Source of the DNA: a virus
Taxonomy: Duplodnaviria > Caudoviricetes
Direction: 5' to 3' (one strand)
Virus record (IMG/VR): IMGVR_UViG_3300047539_000043
Location: 6,301-70,300 of that record
DNA length: 64,000 nt
Part shown: positions 1,404 through 33,507 of the stretch, one piece after another
Layout of the letters: each line of letters begins with the position of its first letter
How positions within the stretch are numbered: the stretch's first letter is position 1
Translations under genes and position numbers: made by a program
The notes under the pieces: model-generated
The model's database searches: none
What the model was told of the DNA's origin: nothing
The model's input: the letters and a program-made list of their open reading frames with translations, nothing else

Positions 1404-2171
1404 ATGCGAAATAACACCAGATTATATGGCGTTTGGGCGACAATGCTATCTCGCTGCCGCAATCCTAAAGTTGCGGCGTATAAAAATTATGGGGAACGGG
1501 GTATTCGCGTTTGTTTTGAGTGGGAAGACTATAAAACATTTGAGTCGTGGGCCTTGGCTAACGGATATAAGCGCGGCCGATATATAGAAATTGACCGTAT
1601 TAATGTGAATGGACATTATGAACCCTCTAATTGCCGATGGGTAAAACGGCTAAACAACAGAAACAAACGAAACAATTTATTGGTTGCGGCGTTTGGTGAG
1701 ACAAAAAGTCTTGTTGAGTGGAGTGAAGACGCGCGCTGTGTAGTAGCTTATCACACATTGAAAAAGCGCATCCATAATAATATGGACGCCGAAAAAGCTA
1801 TCCTTAATCCAGCACTAGAGCCAGGGAAATATCCTCGGTTTCATATGCCGCGTTGGTATTTGGCGGGCCCGATGCGCGGGTGTCTTGATAATAATTTCGC
1901 AAATTTTTCAAAGGCCGCAGCGAAACTGCGATCAGAAGGAAAAGAAGTTTTTTCGCCAGCAGAACGAGATTTAGCTGAATATGGCCCCACGCTAGATGGT
2001 TTTTCTATTCGGGGCGCCCTGCGCGCGGATACAAATTGGATATGTACTCGTGCAGATGCAGTTGCTCTTTTACCCGGATGGGAACGGTCATTAGGATCGC
2101 TCGCGGAACGTGCTCTCGCTAAAGCTATTGGCCTTCAAATAGTAGAACTAGGAGCAGACTATTGTGTCTGA
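1404..2171 (+). CDS. HNH homing-endonuclease domain fused to a DUF4406 (nucleoside deoxyribosyltransferase-like) domain
   Basis: N-half: RLYGVWATMLSRC...YGERGIRVC.EW...IDRINVNGHYEPSNCRW. C-half: WYLAGPMRG...NFANF..AA..LR...SPAE...DAVALLPGWERSLGS.AE..LA..IGL. Confidence 0.85.
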   Translation: MRNNTRLYGVWATMLSRCRNPKVAAYKNYGERGIRVCFEWEDYKTFESWALANGYKRGRYIEIDRINVNGHYEPSNCRWVKRLNNRNKRNNLLVAAFGETKSLVEWSEDARCVVAYHTLKKRIHNNMDAEKAILNPALEPGKYPRFHMPRWYLAGPMRGCLDNNFANFSKAAAKLRSEGKEVFSPAERDLAEYGPTLDGFSIRGALRADTNWICTRADAVALLPGWERSLGSLAERALAKAIGLQIVELGADYCV

Positions 2172-19985: not shown

Positions 19986-21754
19986 TATACCCTCCCACCG
20001 CGGTACATGAAGTCCTGAATTTGTTGGCCTGGAGGTATCCAGCCGCCGCCATTAACGCCGAAAGCCTGCCATTGATCGCCTGGAGCCGGCGGGGTTCCAT
20101 AATTTGCTGGGGTGCCGCCGCCCATGGGGACGCTACCAGGCGATGGGTTCCCGTAACCACGCGACGAATATGGTGCCTGGCTTGTAGGTGCCGGCGTTGT
20201 CGGTGTCGGTGACGAATATGGTGCCTGGCTTGTAGGCGCCGGCGTTGTCGTAGCAGAAGACGCGGTTGGTGATGCACTGGGCGGGTTATATCCGCCACCT
20301 GCTACACCACTCAGACCACTTTGATTAAGGCTCGAGCCCCACGATCCCATCGCGTCGGTGCTAGTAGCGCCGCCGGCGGCGAAGCGTTGTATACTGCCGC
20401 CGCGTCTAGCTTGTGGCTGCTGGGCCGACTGCGAGTCAAATGTCGGCTGCTGGCCAGGCGATTGCGCTGGCCCCGCGGTGGGCCCGACCGACTGTGCGGC
20501 GGTCACGCGCGCCTTACGCGACTGATCGATCATCTTGTGGAAGAACTCTTCACCTTTCCAGCGTGCTACGTCGCGCGGCACGACGAACTCTTCGGAGTTG
20601 AGATTGGCCGGCACATCGTCTACATTGATGCCGCCGCTCGGGCTGGCCTGCTGTGACACATGGCCACCCTGTGTTGCATCTCCACCGAAACTAAACGCGC
20701 CCGGTCTGTTGCCGACGTCGCCGCCCGTAGCATAGCCGCTGGCGCTGCTGCCGCCATAGCCGCCGCCCCCGACTTGTATTGGGGGGGCATTATCATAATA
20801 TCCTCCTCCGCTGCCCCCACCGCCACCGCCACCGCCCCCATAACCGCCGCCCCCGCCGGTAGTAGTCGGGTTGGTCGGGCTGGTACCGCCTGTGTTAGTG
20901 CCACCCGCGGTGCCCATTGAGCCAGACTGGTTGGCTACGGTCGGGATACTGGTATTCTGGTTGGTACTCTGTGACGTCGACGTTGACGCATTGCCAACAC
21001 CCGGCAGAGCGGCTTTTCCCTGAGCCAATAGAGAAGACGGCCCCGTATCGGTCAACGCTACACCCGTGTTGGCGTTGGCCAGCGCAGCATTTTGAGATCC
21101 CGTAATAGCCGCGGTGCCGGCGTTCGAAGCGTTGATGGCCTGACCCGGCAACTGCTGCCCCGTAGCGATCGACGAGGCAAGCAGTCCACGGCCAGTCGCC
21201 TCGGTAGCAAGCTCCGACTGTTGACCGGCACCGGCCGCGGCGGCTCCTGCCGCGGTTCGGTTTGCAGAGTTAAGCTCGGCATACTCGCCGCTAGACGGGT
21301 TGATGCCATAGGACTGCAGGTTCTGCTTGGCGGCCGCCATGGCAGCGTTGGTGCCTTGCATGGACTGCGACTCCGCGGCCCCCATGTTGACGCCAATGCG
21401 ACCAGCGCTCGCGTACTGAGCAGCCTCGTTTGCCTGCTGATTGATCTCCGGAACGGTTGTGTTTTCGTATTGGTTCGTGGTCTGGTTGGCCAGGTTCATG
21501 TCTTGCTGACTGGCCGCCAGATAATTATCGATCGAGTTATTGGTGACCGCGGACGTGGCGGCGTATTGGTTCTGGCCCCATTGCTCCTGGGAAGAGGCTA
21601 GCTGGGCCGCATAGGCGGCGATCTGCTGGTTCTGCAGGGCCTCCGAGGATTGCATAACCTCGGGGTTTGAAACGCTGGTTGAGGTGCTTTGCCCGGTTCC
21701 TTGCGACCCGGTTGTGGTTACGCCGGGGGCCGGTGTCGGTTCATTGACATTCAT
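19985..21754 (-). CDS. internal virion / ejection protein (putative)
   Basis: 589 aa. Gln/Ala-rich helical N-half, Gly-rich linker, DDVPANLNSEEFVVPRDVA..KG domain. Confidence 0.7.
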   Translation of the reverse strand: MNVNEPTPAPGVTTTGSQGTGQSTSTSVSNPEVMQSSEALQNQQIAAYAAQLASSQEQWGQNQYAATSAVTNNSIDNYLAASQQDMNLANQTTNQYENTTVPEINQQANEAAQYASAGRIGVNMGAAESQSMQGTNAAMAAAKQNLQSYGINPSSGEYAELNSANRTAAGAAAAGAGQQSELATEATGRGLLASSIATGQQLPGQAINASNAGTAAITGSQNAALANANTGVALTDTGPSSLLAQGKAALPGVGNASTSTSQSTNQNTSIPTVANQSGSMGTAGGTNTGGTSPTNPTTTGGGGGYGGGGGGGGGSGGGYYDNAPPIQVGGGGYGGSSASGYATGGDVGNRPGAFSFGGDATQGGHVSQQASPSGGINVDDVPANLNSEEFVVPRDVARWKGEEFFHKMIDQSRKARVTAAQSVGPTAGPAQSPGQQPTFDSQSAQQPQARRGGSIQRFAAGGATSTDAMGSWGSSLNQSGLSGVAGGGYNPPSASPTASSATTTPAPTSQAPYSSPTPTTPAPTSQAPYSSRGYGNPSPGSVPMGGGTPANYGTPPAPGDQWQAFGVNGGGWIPPGQQIQDFMYRGGRV

Positions 21755-21813
21755 TTACGCAATCCCTGATCAGGTCCGTCAAGGGTACATGGGACTGGTT
21801 TGTAAACGGTTAA

Positions 21814-22164
21814 CTAATTCTGCTGCCATTTCCAGCTCTGCCCCGCGCTATTGACGAGCTGCAGGCCGGTGATCTGTTCGACATCAACCCAGGTCTGGCC
21901 TGATGGGTCATTCTGGTCGTAGATCCGGATAACTTCTGTCGTTCGGGTGTTGGGCAGCTCGACGAAATCCCCCGGGCCCGTGGGGACGGGGATCAGGTTG
22001 TTCGACGGAACTTGGTTAAGAAGATTAAGAAGTGCCTGTCTAATAGCATTAACGGATGCGATTACCGACGCCAGATCGTTAGCGATCGGAATGGACGGCA
22101 GCGACGGCGCGCGCGACGACGGTGGCGGGGAAGCTGGATTGATATTACAGACCACGGCCCCCAT
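21814..22164 (-). CDS. hypothetical virion-module protein
   Basis: AGGAG SD; lies between the tail and ejection genes. Confidence 0.7.
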   Translation of the reverse strand: MGAVVCNINPASPPPSSRAPSLPSIPIANDLASVIASVNAIRQALLNLLNQVPSNNLIPVPTGPGDFVELPNTRTTEVIRIYDQNDPSGQTWVDVEQITGLQLVNSAGQSWKWQQN

Positions 22165-22194
22165 AGTTACTCCTTTTCAGTGCGGGTTATCGTT

Positions 22195-25067
22195 TTACAC
22201 ATTCCCCAATTCCTTGACGCTGGTAGCGATCTGGACGTTGCTGATGTTAATCACGCCGAGAATTTCGAATTGCCAGTTCTCGGCTTTCCAGCCACTTTCT
22301 ATGCGTAAAATTCCCCCCGATCGGGTGATTTCTCTACATGTTACTAGTTGCATATCGCCATCATAATCATCGTCCGCGGGATCCGCCCATACCTTTATAA
22401 TACCTCTTTGATTGACCTGCAGGGTGTCCCAGCTGGGGTCGGTCGCGCATGCCTCGTTCGGACAATCATTGACTGGCGGCGTGTTCGGTGGGCATGTGAA
22501 AAATACCCGCATGGCCGCATAACTCTTCTTCGTGTTCTGCTGGTAGATCTTCGACGTATAGTCGTACGGCATGATGGTCGGGGCCGGGTCTTCGAAATCG
22601 TAGTAGAGTACCTGCCCGTTCTGAATGACGAGGCCAAAGCCGGTCCACGGGTCTATCTCTAGGTTGACCATGTTCTGGTTGTTGGGCGCCGTCATGCTGT
22701 TGAAGCCCACCCGATGACCGCCGGGCTGGGGCCAGATGGTGAAGCTTGTACTGTCTGTGTTGAGCTCAATATTGAACCCCTGTTGCGCCACACTTGTATC
22801 GGCCCCGTTGACTGTACCATATGCAAAGTAACAGGAAACGAGTGGGATAGCACGAATGTTTTTCTGCGGTGTGAGGGCTGCCCACTTCTCTCGAGTGATC
22901 CATAGCTCCGTGACATTTGAAGATATTCCCGTGTTAGTGACCTGGATAAGTCCGTTGGGTGAAGCATAGAACACTCCCGCGTCGGTACCCACAATGCTAT
23001 CACGCGACAAGCATGGGTCGGGGGGAGCACATTTGATCATAGACATGCTGCCAGGTGCCGTACCGGTAGCAACGTAAGAGTTCGCCGCCGTGCAAGCCAC
23101 CACGGATCCGGACGTCAGGCCCAGGCCGACGATCGGGAAGTCGGTTGTGATGACGTAACCCGGGGGCCACGCATGCATGTAGTACGGTTCACAGAACCAG
23201 ATCTCATTGTTCTTGAACCCTGCCACCATGCCGTTGGGCATGTTGAGGATCCCCACCAGATTGGCGGGCGGCGGGAAATAGTTGGTGGACGGCATCTGGA
23301 TGTTGAGACCAATCACCGCATCGGTCTGCGTGTCCGTGTAGCTTGACGCCGGCGGCAGACAGGTGGTATCTTGCGCCACGAACGCGATCGCGTCCGGATC
23401 GGAGGACCCTAATGAAACATCCGCAACCCAAAAATATACCGTGGACCCACTGGTTCCGGGGACCGTCCGGTATAACCGCAGCACAGCTAAGTTCCTATTT
23501 ACTCCCATGTCTTCTGGATTTGGAAGCCACAAGCCGACGTTCCACGTACCATTTGACCATCCAGTTACAAGAGTGTACGGAGAAGGCGCCGACTCCTCGC
23601 CGTAAGCCGAAATCCACGTATAAACGTAAGCCCTTGCCTCCAATGGTGCTGATGTAGCCAAGTCGGCATACATGTATAGGTTGGGCGCTCCGTAAGTTGC
23701 GGCTGGAGCGTTCAAAGGTGGCCCGTTAACGAACGTGTTGGCGAAGGACACGGACCCGTTGCTGCCGTCGCCCTCTTGGATCTGCTCTGTCGTGTTCATC
23801 GATATGCCAATCCAGTAGGTCTGGTTGGCAAGCAATGCAGGTGGGTTGAGGAAAGAGCTGCCCGCAAGCGTGCCGGCAGTGATGCCTTGGTTGATCTCGC
23901 CCGCACCGTTCTCCACCAGCGTGCCTGGGCTCGTGGGCGTGTTCCCGTAGGTCGCATCCAGATAGATGACGGAAGAGAACAGTACCAGTGGGTCGGTGCT
24001 GGCCGGCATGAACGTGACATCGGACAGCTGCATGGCGCCGATGGGCGTGATGGGGATCAGATAGATGGTGTTGGCGCCAAGCTGGTCGACGTTACCATCC
24101 GAGAACGTCACGCCAAGTGTCGCGGATGCGCCACCACCGCTCACAGTCACCGTGGGCGCGCAGCCGGGGGGATTGATCCCAAGCAGGAACGGGTTCTTGC
24201 CGGCCGTGATCCGGTTCAACGTGTTGTACTGTGGCGGCTCCGACGGGCTCGCCCAGTAGTACCGCTGGTAAATGTCGTCGACTACTTGCGTTTTGATGAC
24301 GTTGGTGTCGGGGTCGAGGAATTCGAGCCATGTAGAAGATCCAGTGATTTGGCTATTGAAGCTAGGGTTCGTTCCACCTGTGAAAGTTCCGATCTCAGGC
24401 ACGAGAGCAGCGAGGTTTCCAAGCCATGTAAGTCTGGCAGCACTAGTACTTTCGGCGACCGCAGTTGCATTAAAAGCTGCTCCATATCCGGGAGAATAGA
24501 CTTGGAGATAAGTGTACGGATTTCCGCCAATTGTTGCCGAGCCGACGACATTGGTGACGTTGGCGGCGTTGTTTTGGGGGGTTGCGACGTCTCCGTTAAT
24601 GACCGTGCTGTTGCCATAGAGGACGCCTTCGTTGGCCCCCGTGCCATTGTCGAAGGTGACGGCAGCAAGAAGGTTCGTAGCTGTGACATTGATGGTTGCT
24701 CCTATCAGAACGTCATAAGGGTTGAGAACTGTGTTTGTGAAATTGTAGAGATCTTCGCCCACAAGGACGTTATCTCCTGGATTGGGGTTTGTCAAGAAGA
24801 TCAGGAACGTCGTCGCGCATGACTGGTTGATAACTGGGATGCGGTATACGTATTGGCTAGCCGAGTTCGTTAGGTTCCGAAGGAACTTCGGAAGCCTCCA
24901 TCCCTGGAGTGCTCCAGAGAAGAGATACGTGTTTGTAGAAGCCGCTGCCTGTCCTGGGGGAAGGAGGTGCGGCTCCCAACTAGGGAGCTGGCCACCAAAC
25001 TATTGTTTCCCGTCAATGACTTACGTCACTAACGGGATTTGACCTGCTCCAGCTTAATTGCTGGCGT
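22195..25067 (-). CDS. podophage tail (tubular B / stabilisation-like) protein with an interrupted 5' end
   Basis: Frame is open from 24999 (FGGQLPSWEPHLLP...) but the first ATG/GTG/TTG is at 24795. Body has EARAYVYTWISAYGEESAPSP, LRLYRT, MPNGMVAGF..NEIWFCEPYYMHAWP, PCLSRDSIV. The matching N-terminal peptide (T)PAIKLEQ lies at 25067-25044 in another frame. Confidence 0.8.
25000..25043 (-). other. 44-nt hairpin-containing intervening sequence
   Basis: GTCAAATCCCGTTAGTGACGTAAGTCATTGACGGGAAACAATAG: 13-bp stem with GTAA loop and stops in all three frames. Exact removal joins ...LEQ to FGG... in frame. Confidence 0.75.
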
Positions 25068-25580
25068 GGTCCTAATCCGTTCTTCCAGATACTTCGCGCC
25101 TTCTAAGAGCCAATCTGGATTGTCTCTTGCCTGCCCCAACATGACATTGCAGTGGGTACAGAGAATGCCGCGCACTTTCCCCGTTGCATGGTCATGGTCA
25201 GTATTCCAATGACCCCTCTTATTACCAGGATGTGCGCTTTTGCATATTGCGCAGCATTTACCCTGGGCATCGAATAATTCATTCCACTCTTCAACGGTTA
25301 AATTATAGTGCCTTTTAAGGTCTTGCTTTCGGTACATTTTTCTAAGCTTTAGTTTGTTGTGGGGGTCTTTGTGCCACCGATTAGTAGACTCCGTGTGCTT
25401 AGCTTTTCCTTCGCTGGTAGCGAGATAGATAGCCCGTGTTGTTTTTCGCTTTTCCCCTCGCGCATACTCACGTTGGTATTTACGAACGGCGTCGGGATCT
25501 AGAGTGGCTTTGTATTCTTTCTGCTGGGCTAAAATACGGTCCCGATTTTTAACATACCACGCGCTATGATCAAACATCAC
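25029..25580 (-). CDS. endonuclease VII-type HNH homing endonuclease
   Basis: YNLTVEEW..LFDAQGKCCAIC...TDHDHATGKVRGILCTHCN.MLG...DNP..L..AKYL; basic N-terminus; GGAGGGG SD. Confidence 0.9.
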   Translation of the reverse strand: MMFDHSAWYVKNRDRILAQQKEYKATLDPDAVRKYQREYARGEKRKTTRAIYLATSEGKAKHTESTNRWHKDPHNKLKLRKMYRKQDLKRHYNLTVEEWNELFDAQGKCCAICKSAHPGNKRGHWNTDHDHATGKVRGILCTHCNVMLGQARDNPDWLLEGAKYLEERIRTTPAIKLEQVKSR

Positions 25581-25792
25581 CCCCTCCGACGGATATGCGA
25601 GAACAGGTCCACCGCTTTCCCGATCGTCTCTGGCTTCCTGTCCTGGGAGCCCGCTCCGTCGACCGGCCGGAATACCCCCACGATGACGTGGTCGCCCTTC
25701 TCCGGATACCTGCGCGGCGCGGGGTGTGCCGCCGCATATTCGGAAACAGCCGCTCCTTGTCTCATTTCACGTATGGTGCGCGCAGATATCAT
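25577..25792 (-). CDS. small hypothetical protein
   Basis: Stop/start overlaps at both ends. Confidence 0.55.
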   Translation of the reverse strand: MISARTIREMRQGAAVSEYAAAHPAPRRYPEKGDHVIVGVFRPVDGAGSQDRKPETIGKAVDLFSHIRRRG

Positions 25793-26370
25793 CTTTGCAC
25801 CGGCATGATCGTGGCTCCTTTAGCCCGTGCGTACTCTGCCGATCGCTTTTGTCCCGCCTCCATTTCGAGCCGGGTCTGTTCGGAGATCTGCGCATGCACA
25901 GGCTGCGCCCGGTGGACCGTAGTCTCGGGCTGACGAGCCCGCAGGACCCGATCGCGGAACTCTTCCTTCTTGGTCTGGTTTTCCTCGTGCTCGTCGAGCT
26001 CCTTCTGGTGCCGCCGCATGCGCGCGGCTTCCTGTCGCTTCGCCACTACCTCTTCCCAGGATGGCAGAACCTCCTGTTCATTATCCGAAATCTTAAACGG
26101 AGAAGCAGCGCGCGCCTCCTGGGCAGCTTTCTCCTCGCGCTGCGCCTGATCCATCAGTGACATCTGAGGCGGCTCCGGGACACGTTTGCCGGCAGCGCGC
26201 TGCTCTGCTTCGATGCGGGCGGACTCCTCGCGGATGACCGCCATGCGGGCCTGACGATCCGCTAAGAGCGGGTCGATGGGCGCAGCCTCAACGGCTTGCG
26301 CGGGGACCACGAGGCCCGCTAGGCCGCTCTCGTCCTCGACTTCCGGGGAGTTTTGCTGGATCTCTTGCAT
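25789..26370 (-). CDS. hypothetical charged/coiled-coil protein
   Basis: AGGAG SD, 193 aa, Glu/Arg/Ala-rich. Confidence 0.75.
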   Translation of the reverse strand: MQEIQQNSPEVEDESGLAGLVVPAQAVEAAPIDPLLADRQARMAVIREESARIEAEQRAAGKRVPEPPQMSLMDQAQREEKAAQEARAASPFKISDNEQEVLPSWEEVVAKRQEAARMRRHQKELDEHEENQTKKEEFRDRVLRARQPETTVHRAQPVHAQISEQTRLEMEAGQKRSAEYARAKGATIMPVQR

Positions 26371-26484
26371 TGGTGGCTCCTGAGTTTGGGGGTACGGTAG
26401 CTTGCGCGGATCCTGAATTGGTTAAAGAACGCTGCCGGGTCGGCTTTTGGCCAAGCGCGCTCTGTATACTATAATAGGCGGAAG

Positions 26485-26500
26485 TTAGCTTATTCTTAAC
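26485..26500. promoter_or_regulatory. CtrA-type box (1 mismatch)
   Basis: TTAG-cttattc-TTAAC, upstream of the 26370 gene. Confidence 0.5.
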
Positions 26501-26681
26501 GCCCGCCATACTTAGCGCCTATCTTGGCCAAGTTGGCCTGGCGCTTGGTCTTGGTTGACGCCCCCTTGCCGGGGTTCTTGGCCATAGCGGCGGTCGACTT
26601 GCCGGCGGCCTTGGCTTTCGCTTTGAATTGACCGTGCGAGTTGGCAAACGCCTTCTCCATCCACCTTGAATCACTAGCCAT
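26496..26681 (-). CDS. small Lys/Ala-rich basic protein
   Basis: MASDSRWMEKAFANSHGQFKAKAKAAGKSTAAMAK...; AGGAG SD. Confidence 0.7.
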   Translation of the reverse strand: MASDSRWMEKAFANSHGQFKAKAKAAGKSTAAMAKNPGKGASTKTKRQANLAKIGAKYGGR

Positions 26682-26889
26682 TGGGGGTCTCCTTTGGTAG
26701 GCAACGCAGTAGACGGTTAATTTCCCACTGGGCCATACCAACGCTGACCATGGTGGACTCGACCCGGGCGTGGGAGTAGTTCCGGACCCAGTATGGCACG
26801 TCCTGGCAGGACCACTTGTGGGCCGCTGGCGCGGGTGTGGTCAGGGCCCCGTAGATTACTACTGCCCAGAGAAGGTTGTTAGCGCCCAT
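26674..26889 (-). CDS. small exported hypothetical protein
   Basis: Hydrophobic N-terminus ending PAAH. Confidence 0.55.
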   Translation of the reverse strand: MGANNLLWAVVIYGALTTPAPAAHKWSCQDVPYWVRNYSHARVESTMVSVGMAQWEINRLLRCLPKETPNG

Positions 26890-27130
26890 GTCGCACCTTG
26901 TAGAGCGGACATTTCAGCGCTTGCCCAATCTGGTTGCGGACCTTGAAATCCAGGGCCAAGATATGTCCGGAGTAACGACCGGACTTCGGATCGTAGGTGT
27001 TGTAGCGGATCGGTCCCACCAGAGCATTGCAGATTGTCTGTCGCTGGACTGCCGTCAGATCCTCGGGTGTACAGCCCGCTACCGTAAAGGCACAGAAAAT
27101 AATACAAAACGTAATTGATTTATACCGCAT
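26879..27130 (-). CDS. o-spanin-like lipoprotein (Rz1-like)
   Basis: Lipobox FTVAGC; follows the Rz-like gene and endolysin. Confidence 0.7.
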   Translation of the reverse strand: MRYKSITFCIIFCAFTVAGCTPEDLTAVQRQTICNALVGPIRYNTYDPKSGRYSGHILALDFKVRNQIGQALKCPLYKVRHGR

Positions 27131-27144
27131 ATCCGACACCTTTA

Positions 27145-27465
27145 TCAATTATCTTTTGTATCCCACGGGTCAACCGCCTTACGGGCCTTCTTTGTCTTGG
27201 TGTGCGTGACGGCCTTGTCCACCACCGCATTGATGTGCCGGGTAGCAACGATGTTTTTCGCGTCACAGCGATGTGATTCGTCGGCAATGCCAACGCCATA
27301 GGCCACCAGGACCAGGGCGACAGCGGCCGCGGCCCAGAGCGCGTAGGACTTGTACAGAGGGCTGAAATAGGCGAAGATGAGGCATAGGATGATGATCGCC
27401 ACACCAGCGCCCCAGTGAAAAATTAGCGACCACGCGCCCGCAGAAAGCTCTTGAATTAGGTACAT
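27145..27465 (-). CDS. i-spanin-like membrane protein (Rz-like)
   Basis: TM segments then a charged periplasmic tail ending DPWDTKDN; directly after the endolysin. Confidence 0.7.
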   Translation of the reverse strand: MYLIQELSAGAWSLIFHWGAGVAIIILCLIFAYFSPLYKSYALWAAAAVALVLVAYGVGIADESHRCDAKNIVATRHINAVVDKAVTHTKTKKARKAVDPWDTKDN

Positions 27466-27951
27466 CTAATCATCCCTCAAACACAGCTTCATCTCCGCGT
27501 GTCGTCGTCTTGTAAGGCCCGCAAGTGTTTTTCCAGCAGCGTGGTTAAACTGGAGCATAGCTCGGCATCCCGCTCGGATGTTACCTGCGTTGATATAACG
27601 CGCAACTGAGCTATGGCAGAGCGCACGCTGGCCGACGTTATACTCGAAAGAGACAAGAGCAGCTTCCCTATTTGGCGGCAACGGAACCTTTATGCATTTG
27701 TGGACCATTTTGTCGTACTTGTCAAGGTCCTCCCCCAGTGCACTAAGGCATGCGTCCTTGGTGAACACCATAGTCATGGGGGGCTCGGGGCTGTCCGCAG
27801 ACGTACGTCCATAACACCAGGTCGTCGGGCGTCCGGTGCCTATGGTGTCCACATACGGCCGTGCCGCAAACCCCTCGTACCCAGCAACGAAGACCGCGGC
27901 GATGGCTATCCAGGCGGCGGCGGTACCGCCTCTCGCCGGCATCGTTGCCAT
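27466..27951 (-). CDS. endolysin, GH24 phage lysozyme with SAR-like N-terminus
   Basis: Ala/Gly-rich weak TM AAAWIAIAAVFVAG, then YEG...PYVD...TWCYGRT; AALVSFEYNVG; GLTRRRHAE..LC. Confidence 0.92.
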   Translation of the reverse strand: MATMPARGGTAAAWIAIAAVFVAGYEGFAARPYVDTIGTGRPTTWCYGRTSADSPEPPMTMVFTKDACLSALGEDLDKYDKMVHKCIKVPLPPNREAALVSFEYNVGQRALCHSSVARYINAGNIRAGCRAMLQFNHAAGKTLAGLTRRRHAEMKLCLRDD

Positions 27952-28299
27952 TTAAATTAAAGGTAGCCCGGGCTGGTTCGTCAGCCGGGCAAAGAGGATG
28001 GCGAGGCTGAACCCCACGCAGACGCAAGCGAAGGGAACCGGATGCAACCAGGTTTGAAAAGCAGGAAGACTGACCCATAGGCCGCCTATGATCGCCCACA
28101 GCACGGACAGCTGAACGCTCCACATGTGGTGCGCCAACCGCCAGTCAGGCGCGGCTATCTTATCGAGGACGTCGGCGACCTTGTCGGCCTTCGTCTCAGA
28201 CTTTTGCGGGTCCTGTGGCACCAGTAACTCCTGCTGGCCCGGTCGGTCCCGGGGGCTCCGCGGCAATGCCTTTTTCGAAGACTTTCCGGAGCTCGGCAA
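27952..28299 (-). CDS. putative holin
   Basis: WRLAHHMWSVQL followed by two TM segments and ARL..QPGL; directly upstream of the endolysin. Confidence 0.65.
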   Translation of the reverse strand: MPSSGKSSKKALPRSPRDRPGQQELLVPQDPQKSETKADKVADVLDKIAAPDWRLAHHMWSVQLSVLWAIIGGLWVSLPAFQTWLHPVPFACVCVGFSLAILFARLTNQPGLPLI

Positions 28300-28381
28300 C
28301 GAGACGGGCCCACTCGGACTCGAGGGTGGAAATTACAGACATAGGGAACTCCTTTTGATGCGCTAGGATGACCTATGGACG

Positions 28382-28392
28382 TTAATCTACCG

Positions 28393-28396
<4 letters not shown>
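28382..28396. promoter_or_regulatory. CtrA-type box (perfect)
   Basis: TTAA-tctaccg-TTAA (TTAA-N7-TTAAC on minus), upstream of the lysis cassette. Confidence 0.7.

Positions 28397-33507
<5,111 letters not shown>

Follow-up and report, generated by a model that had tools for sequence, protein, structure and literature searches.

In phages, ribosomal bypassing has so far been proven only for gene 60 of T4, and long-range bypassing in bacteria and phages rests on essentially that element and its homologues. In T4, the endonuclease MobA and a 50-nucleotide (nt) gap form a unit, in which the gap protects against MobA and persists after the endonuclease has been lost (Manning & Atkins preprint, bioRxiv 2022; Atkins et al. 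2016, PMC5009743). Cassettes of the gene 60 type, which have been called unique, were found only in the topoisomerase genes of myoviruses (Manning & Atkins, bioRxiv 2022), and they carry a mini-Shine-Dalgarno element 5-6 nt upstream of the landing codon together with an AU-rich 3′ gap (Manning & Atkins preprint). The grammar by which a tRNA re-pairs was set by synthetic constructs, the natural cases being gene 60 and the mitochondrial byps (Atkins et al. 2016; Manning & Atkins preprint); E. coli constructs gave hopping as well as shifts of +1, +2 and +6 (Weiss et al. 1987, as summarised in Atkins et al. 2016, PMC5009743), and natural in-frame stop-hops are stated as not known (Atkins et al. 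2016, PMC5009743). Set beside these systems here is a locus in a 64,000-nt stretch (hereafter, the window) of the virus record IMGVR_UViG_3300047539_000043 (Duplodnaviria; Caudoviricetes), where a 44-nt hairpin insert immediately behind an HNH endonuclease-type gene splits the start of a podophage tail nozzle gene. Neither this locus nor HNH-linked recoding in tail genes turned up in searches of a literature library.

The virus record is 70.3 kb long and 100% complete by CheckV. The locus lies on its minus strand and is made up of the following parts, coordinates being window positions throughout.

25029..25577, minus strand: HNH homing-endonuclease-type gene, from ATG 25577 (or GTG 25580) to TAG 25031-25029.
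25044..25067, minus strand: first piece of the nozzle gene, with ACG at the Met position and codons for PAIKLEQ, in frame with the HNH open reading frame (ORF).
25049..25064, minus strand: 5-base-pair (bp) stem-loop (CCAGC, loop AAUUAA, GCUGG) within the first coding piece, 2 nt upstream of CAG.
25046-25044, minus strand: CAG, the proposed take-off codon.
25000..25043, minus strand: 44-nt non-coding gap with stops in three frames, absent from HNH-free relatives.
25008..25037, minus strand: 13-bp hairpin with a GUAA loop, beginning 6 nt after CAG and holding the HNH stop TAG in its 5′ arm.
25000..25011, minus strand: 3′ end of the gap, with GGGA at 25011-25008, five A-rich nt, and UAG at 25002-25000 as the proposed landing triplet.
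22195..24999, minus strand: second piece of the nozzle gene, 934 codons, from FGGQLPSWEPHLLPPGQ to ...SVKELGNV and a stop.

That the gene is split is plain from comparison with its homologues. Read directly on the minus strand, ACG CCA GCA ATT AAG CTG GAG CAG occupies 25067-25044, the 44 nt follow at 25043-25000, and TTT GGT GGC CAG begins at 24999, exactly the arrangement described in the initial annotation. The coding sequence gives PAIKLEQ ahead of the 44 nt and FGGQLPSWEPHLLPPGQAAASTNTYLF beyond; with the 44 nt deleted it becomes PAIKLEQ-FGGQLP, identical to the closest full-length homologue (P0007), such that the family N-terminus is restored without a gap and the invariant residues G11, P14, W16, L20, P22 and Q25 continue in register. 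Direct reading of the 44 nt also makes visible the stops claimed for all three frames, and a listing of ORFs and starts confirms that the second piece runs for 68 codons without any ATG, GTG or TTG, the first lying only at 24795. Gene callers systematically shorten these nozzle genes, and the 866-residue call in the window loses 76 codons.

The identity of the interrupted protein is important in this regard. A search of a large protein collection gave more than 400 homologues, among them proteins of 82% identity across 100% of the length. The N-terminus of the close homologues is MPAIKLEQFGGQLP, that of P0007 is MPAIKLEQFGGQLPAWEPHLLPPGQAAASTNTYLF, of which the other full-length close relatives are near variants, and in the alignments homologues begin MPAIKLEQFGG; a Rhizobium phage homologue of 35% identity begins MAAIKLPIFAGMVPS...HLLADPNAA. 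The N-terminal match given in the initial annotation is real and, judged by P0007 and the Rhizobium phage homologue, stronger than was stated there. The uninterrupted ATG-PAIKLEQFGG allele predicted for HNH-free relatives has likewise been found upon alignment, both in P0007 and in the HNH-free relative L004, where ATG CCA GCA ATC AAA ATT GAA CAA TTT GGT GGG is contiguous. Many of the invariant positions of the family fall within the first 45 residues. In the AlphaFold (AF2) model of P0007 (predicted local distance difference test score, pLDDT, 89.7), residues 4-6 and 10-12 form strands with a pLDDT of 83, and a Foldseek search with this model returns the GP4 portal-tail complex (8jov_A, E 2.4e-23), followed by the SU10, T7 gp12 and P22 gp10 nozzles. 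The gene is assigned to phrog_511 and has its place in the tail gene module. By the fold modelled for this homologue and by this position, the protein is a podophage tail nozzle of the T7 gp12 / P22 gp10 / GP4 type. A scan of genome contigs gave nozzle relatives which are only distant, at 39% identity or less.

The gene directly upstream matches Pfam Endonuclease_7 (PF02945) with an E value of 4.6e-24, and also the PHROG endonuclease VII families, which bears out the endoVII-type HNH identity first given to it. It is the sole Endonuclease_7 gene in the whole virus record, its G+C content is 0.43-0.49 against 0.56-0.63 in the flanks, and its ATG is overlapped by the stop (TGA 25579-25577) of a 71-residue ORF upstream. 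At its other end, the HNH frame passes through the first eight nozzle codons and stops inside the hairpin, its last codons being T-PAIKLEQ-VKSR-stop. In its HNH motifs, its low G+C relative to the flanks, its patchy presence at one intergenic site and its decay to remnants, the gene resembles the free-standing HNH endonucleases of phages (the T4 Mob family; Endonuclease_7); unlike these, it no longer has a stop of its own, and its ORF continues in frame into the putative target gene. A scan of IMG/VR by HNH returned 80 loci, of which only two, both already known, adjoin a nozzle gene. Two side observations concern endonucleases in this phage group. At the locus of P0015, in another close relative, a 119-residue Endonuclease_7 gene lies directly downstream of the nozzle gene and overlaps its end, such that the nozzle gene of the group may be targeted at both ends. 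Elsewhere in the window, a 255-residue ORF at 1404-2171 (plus strand) joins a different nuclease-like N-terminal module to a domain from an internal MPRWYLAGPM, and would be the second endonuclease ORF in the genome to continue in frame into the adjoining gene.

The record is a metagenome-derived contig, and the 44 nt might in principle have arisen as an assembly or sequencing artefact. This is scarcely credible, as the same 44 nt and an identical HNH gene occur in an independently assembled contig from another sample (L109), which differs at 10 positions in 4344 nt, none of them in the gap or the HNH gene; between the nozzle ORFs of the two, eight codons differ, six synonymously and two non-synonymously. 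Moreover, the HNH protein with its ...TPAIKLEQVKSR end, which is to say the protein that reads into the gap, is recorded as an identical copy on seven contigs, and a diverged homologous gap is found in a further relative, L110.

L110 is a noisy long-read assembly in which the exact length of the gap is uncertain. Its HNH protein is 64% identical to that of the window over the aligned half. Its nozzle gene has ATG and the same seven codons (GAG CAA for GAG CAG), a 45-nt gap at the same codon, and then TTC GGC GGC CAG. The hairpin has been kept: 13 of 13 pairs are present despite five substituted stem positions, one change being compensatory (G-C to A-U) and three being one-sided by way of G-U, while about half of the positions in the unpaired flanks of the gap differ, as counted by eye. 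In other words, the stem-loop covaries, with all pairs retained and one compensatory change, in a comparison of two sequences only. The spacing of GGGA, 5 nt and resume triplet is also common to both. In the window the hairpin folds with a free energy of -21.6 kcal/mol (z -7.6), and none of 200 shuffled sequences folds as well; the 13-bp stem and GUAA loop of the initial annotation thus stand, whereas the three G-U pairs counted there are two. These G-U pairs argue that the structure acts in the sense-strand RNA. The unpaired 3′ flank of the window gap is A/U at seven of nine positions, and GGGA, by analogy with gene 60, may be a mini-Shine-Dalgarno-like helper of landing. The 5-bp stem-loop just upstream of CAG, which appears in the minimum free energy and centroid folds of both the window and L110, may be analogous to the 5′ stem-loop of gene 60; its sequence is identical in L110 and hence carries no covariation information.

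Other readings of the hairpin have been considered. A repeated mobile element is rejected, as the window contains no second copy of the gap at three or fewer mismatches and no shared 11-mers, and a pattern scan of IMG/VR for the hairpin gave no further copy. A terminator or promoter is rejected too, since the scan for such sites lists none at 25000-25043. A third reading takes the hairpin as primarily an element of the HNH gene (a 3′ stabiliser, a processing site, a provider of the stop or a translational attenuator), the split nozzle N-terminus then being incidental and repaired without bypassing. Indeed, in the window and in L110 an earlier stop belonging to the HNH ORF has disappeared and the frame continues across the nozzle start to end inside the hairpin (in the loop in L110), and the G-U pairs point to a function in sense-strand RNA. 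A point mutation would supply a stop far more cheaply, however, and the hairpin has no U-tract for termination. The proposal also leaves nozzle synthesis unexplained, together with the inserts of L044 and L056, the HNH genes of which have their own stops. We regard it as quite unlikely, and since it is compatible with bypassing it is not a true alternative.

Set against T4 mobA/gene 60, the locus has much in common: an HNH-family gene that immediately precedes a short gap in a conserved coding sequence (44-45 nt here against 50 nt in T4), a stable tetraloop hairpin in the 5′ part of the gap and an A/U-rich 3′ part, a G-rich mini-Shine-Dalgarno-like element 5 nt before the resume point, and a stop soon after take-off. 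Relatives also retain inserts where the endonuclease has degenerated, which has been reported of MobA elements too. The features that mark a gene 60-type element, namely two collinear ORF pieces making up one conserved protein, a 5′ stem-loop, and a mini-Shine-Dalgarno with an AU-rich 3′ gap, can all be read from the sequence. The differences are equally clear. There is no sequence homology, and the insertion lies at codon 8 of a podophage nozzle gene rather than at codon 46 of a myovirus topoisomerase gene; the insertion into the topoisomerase large subunit that would indicate homology with MobA/gene 60 is thus not seen. The endonuclease here is placed only in Pfam Endonuclease_7 and is set beside MobA by class. 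The hairpin starts 6 nt past the take-off codon, the next codon is a common sense codon, CAG and UAG are near-matched, the nascent peptide has 8 residues unless it comes from the HNH ORF, and the system is known from sequence alone. On this comparison, the locus is an analogue of T4 mobA/gene 60 and not a homologue. The byps of Magnusiomyces capitatus mitochondria provide a second point of reference, sharing with the locus inserts of tens of nt in protein genes, imperfect take-off/landing pairs and AU-rich 3′ parts (Atkins et al. 2016; Manning & Atkins preprint), but byps are mobile, multi-copy and have no endonuclease partner, whereas the insert here is present once per genome and is tied to HNH.

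Interrupted alleles also occur in relatives. The nozzle 5′ ends of ~75 lineages were classified for an adjacent HNH gene and for continuity of the N-terminus; 1-nt inserts were left out of the evidence where the contig is a long-read one (L108 and parts of L110), as these assemblies show other homopolymer frameshifts. Nine lineages are interrupted, the window and eight others, and all inserts fall within codons 4-19 of the ~940 codons of the nozzle gene. The alleles, by length of insert, are as follows.

L034 and L042: 1 nt, UUU C GGC, with +1 movement onto UUC; full HNH gene.
L015/L016: 2 nt, AUA UAA AG, where +2 re-pairing on AUA restores MPAIKLEQ; full HNH gene.
L044: 6 nt, UUG UAG UUG; full HNH gene.
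L056: 6 nt, CCG UAG CCA; full HNH gene.
L005/L010/L011/L014: 6 nt, CAU UAG CUC, identical in three samples; HNH remnant.
L017: 8 nt, CCG UAG CUU CG; HNH remnant.
Window: 44 nt; full HNH gene.
L110: 45 nt plus 6 nt (CCG UAG CCA).

Directly upstream of the nozzle gene, all interrupted lineages carry an HNH gene, either in full or as a remnant. Indeed, interruption is found in 9 of the 15 lineages with such an adjacent gene or remnant and in none of the 50 without (Fisher p 1.6e-7), and 11 further HNH-free lineages are all uninterrupted. Further homologues truncated at the N-terminus are P0006, P0015, P0072 and P0131; for P0026, no IMG/VR relative was found. The endonuclease is thus patchy at one site (15 of ~65 lineages have the gene or a remnant) and adjoins an altered sequence, as is expected of a mobile cassette. 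In L110, the region 1655-1740 contains two interruptions in one gene, the 45-nt hairpin gap after codon 8 and CCG UAG CCA after codon 18; single-base frameshifts lie further downstream, as is typical of long-read assembly.

The interrupted genes from short-read assemblies are otherwise intact ORFs of 884-1146 codons that end in the family C-terminus, and two strains sharing the 2-nt allele differ at 58 codons synonymously and at 24 non-synonymously. Such intact ORFs and mostly synonymous changes mark the interrupted nozzle genes, at the level of sequence, as working genes under purifying selection, with the lesion limited to a single short segment, for which the simplest reading is that the neighbouring endonucleases recognise it. 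Separately, no difference separates L015 from L016 across the HNH gene, the 2-nt insert and nozzle codons 1-221; a patch at codons 222-400 then differs by 22-30%, and near-identity returns after it, the pattern of a recombination mosaic in the variable central part of the nozzle. A further set of variants occurs at the same site: in the HNH-bearing, uninterrupted L069/L084 (at ~2500-2530), GGG replaces the almost invariant FGG (DKGGGMLP), and L003 has YGG and an ACG start; these may be substitution-type escape alleles. In L108 (1290-1500), a 57-residue Cys/His-rich ORF (CxxC...CxxC), not detectably HNH, precedes the nozzle gene at the HNH site of other relatives and adjoins a one-T insertion in that gene (UUU U GG), which may be a homopolymer error.

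It is conceivable that the inserts simply truncate or inactivate the 5′ end, in which case the nozzle would be made without at least its first 8 residues, or the gene would be dead and the phage defective or reliant on co-infecting relatives. The joining of the two pieces is, after all, drawn from sequence comparison, the family tolerates ATT, ATC and ACG starts, and several short alleles have a usable start after the insert (the M12 ATG in L015 and L034; UUG in L044 and L010). Against this, the window has no ATG, GTG or TTG for 68 codons, and in the part of that frame that was read the only GGAGG-like sequence (24898-24894) is followed by no usable start; L056, L042 and L110 are also without a nearby start. 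Moreover, the part that would be lost contains the most conserved residues of the family and two strands in the model (residues 4-6 and 10-12). Apart from the inserts, the ORFs are intact in eight of the nine lineages (L110 being the noisy assembly) with mostly synonymous change, all lesions are confined to codons 4-19 of ~940, and the alleles recur in several samples. Truncation or loss of function is therefore unlikely.

The inserts are not random in sequence, a common pattern being found in their codons. Of the six that are at least 6 nt long, five have a stop at a junction (the exception being the 45-nt gap of L110), directly after the take-off codon in four and as the pre-resume triplet in the window. 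In five of these six, the last codon before the insert matches the pre-resume triplet in at least two of three positions, for which the chance expectation is 0.16 each, and the 1- and 2-nt inserts create overlapping cognate codons. As read from the sequence, this pattern is a hallmark of P-site tRNA re-pairing at slow A sites or shifty stops. Two further explanations have been rejected: reassignment of TAG, as TAG serves as the stop of 9 of 49 long ORFs and inserts of 44, 8 and 2 nt are out of frame (a tRNA scan of the window found no tRNA, hence no suppressor), and termination-reinitiation at the short inserts, which would suit L044 and L010 with their UUG after the stop but fails to account for L056, L017, L042, L110 or the window. 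The short alleles resemble the synthetic stop-hops and shifty stops both in the matched or synonymous codons that flank the stop (UUG UAG UUG in L044; CCG UAG CCA in L056 and L110) and in re-pairing sites that overlap and either adjoin a stop or precede CGG (AUA UAA AG; UUU CGG). Those constructs were engineered, whereas here they are natural alleles of an essential virion gene, in which the hop is predicted from sequence.

The same series bears on the mini-intron alternative raised in the initial annotation, according to which the 44 nt are removed from the RNA, either as a mini-intron or by processing and ligation centred on the hairpin. Precise excision would restore the frame, and the conserved hairpin could be the recognition element of an endonuclease. 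Yet 44 nt are too few for the catalytic core of a group I or group II intron, and no such catalytic RNA core is seen; Rfam gave no match in 20000-30000 at E values up to 1, and no RtcB or RNA ligase was found in the virus record. Inserts of 1, 2, 6 and 8 nt, furthermore, cannot be introns and nonetheless share the HNH linkage and the codon-match pattern. We know of no bacterial system that excises a short mRNA hairpin and re-joins the ends, although no search was made for one. The comparison thus lends no support to RNA removal, which is very improbable.

Taken in sum, the reading that we favour, with a probability of roughly 0.6 and on the strength of sequence comparison, is that the inserts protect the target site of the HNH endonuclease and must be passed by ribosomal bypassing or frameshifting. 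The cassette of the gene 60/mobA kind suggested by the initial annotation is thereby supported as far as that comparison reaches, through the uninterrupted allele in relatives, the L110 gap with its conserved hairpin and the recurrent HNH-linked inserts. A free-standing Endonuclease_7-type HNH gene would have settled immediately upstream of the nozzle gene of a ~70-kb podophage, with its target probably within about the first 20 nozzle codons. The 44-nt hairpin insert between codons 8 and 9 would break the target site and so protect the carrier genome, and HNH gene and insert would then persist jointly, as in the T4 mobA/gene 60 cassette. As the nozzle needs its conserved N-terminus, ribosomes would have to join both coding pieces. 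With CAG (25046-25044) in the P site, the base of the hairpin would lie ~10 nt downstream, at the mRNA entrance, making a stall plausible; while the ribosome is stalled there, the peptidyl-tRNA-Gln would leave CAG, and the ribosome would pass the folded hairpin, aided by GGGA, which stands five nt ahead of where decoding resumes. The tRNA-Gln (anticodon CUG) would re-pair on UAG 25002-25000 by a first-position G-U pair, a pair of the same kind that L017 would need in moving from CCG to UCG. Decoding would then resume at UUU to give ...PAIKLEQ-FGGQLP..., with a predicted junction peptide of LEQFGGQLPSWEPH / IKLEQFGGQLPSWEPH.

Several details of the locus sit poorly with this reading. CAG and UAG match in two of three positions, and re-pairing needs a first-position G-U pair; a cognate CAA stands just before UAG in the resumed frame, and a tRNA landing on it would face the stop. 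CAG is followed by GUC, the commonest Val codon (20 per 1000), neither a stop nor hungry, and the in-frame UAG comes only four codons after this GUC; a stop or rare codon right after take-off, as in L044, L056, L010, L017 and L015, is thus not present in the window. Unlike in gene 60, the hairpin does not include the take-off codon. The nascent chain would be 8 residues long if translation starts at ACG, or would comprise ~170 residues of HNH if it comes from the HNH ORF, and a long nascent peptide is essential in gene 60. In L110, the triplets CAA and CUA mismatch in the middle position, and the 45-nt gap is in frame, in an assembly that is noisy. Lastly, six HNH-bearing lineages are uninterrupted.

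How translation of the window gene would begin bears on the same question. The start may be the ACG at the Met position, AUU at codon 4, or the start codon of the HNH gene in the same frame, which would give an HNH-nozzle fusion; the window nozzle may indeed be made in this last way, given that the two ORFs share a frame and the ATG has gone. The window ACG has AGGA just 2 nt upstream or GGA 8 nt upstream, whereas in L003 an ACG at the Met position of an uninterrupted gene stands behind AGGAGG and 8 nt. ATT, ATC or ACG takes the Met position in several uninterrupted nozzle genes (L012:2790-2800; L107:1368-1376; L030, L049 and L050 at ~2500; L003:2968-2970), with a good Shine-Dalgarno sequence 6-8 nt upstream in five of six, a weaker one in L049, and no canonical in-frame start nearby. 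Such non-canonical starts are found in ~7 of 65 lineages, far above the usual rate, and gene callers start these genes at least 12 codons late. Seen against these uninterrupted relatives, the ACG of the window is less odd than it looked. A low yield of recoding may be enough for the nozzle, in view of the weak ATT, ATC and ACG starts behind good Shine-Dalgarno sequences in relatives and of the nozzle being a hexamer in the solved tail complexes matched here.

On a wider view, and at what we would put as even odds, HNH endonucleases have repeatedly hit the first 20 nozzle codons in these phages, the response being a natural recoding series that extends from +1 and +2 shifts through 6-nt stop-hops and an 8-nt hop to the 44/45-nt hairpin bypass. 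The locus would in that case be an independent, non-homologous cassette, with a hairpin downstream of take-off, near-matched codons and a position at codon 8; it would be the first bypass cassette unrelated to T4 gene 60, and the short alleles would be the first natural stop-hops. The graded inserts of 1 to 8 nt in close relatives offer a ready mutant series on what ribosome hopping needs. Were the mechanism confirmed at the bench, this would be the second bypass system, independent of the first and with an allelic series already built in. The locus ties recoding to the arms race in which homing endonucleases and the genes that they target are engaged, and an immunity insert passed by ribosomal bypassing would then be a general outcome of conflict between an endonuclease and an essential gene.

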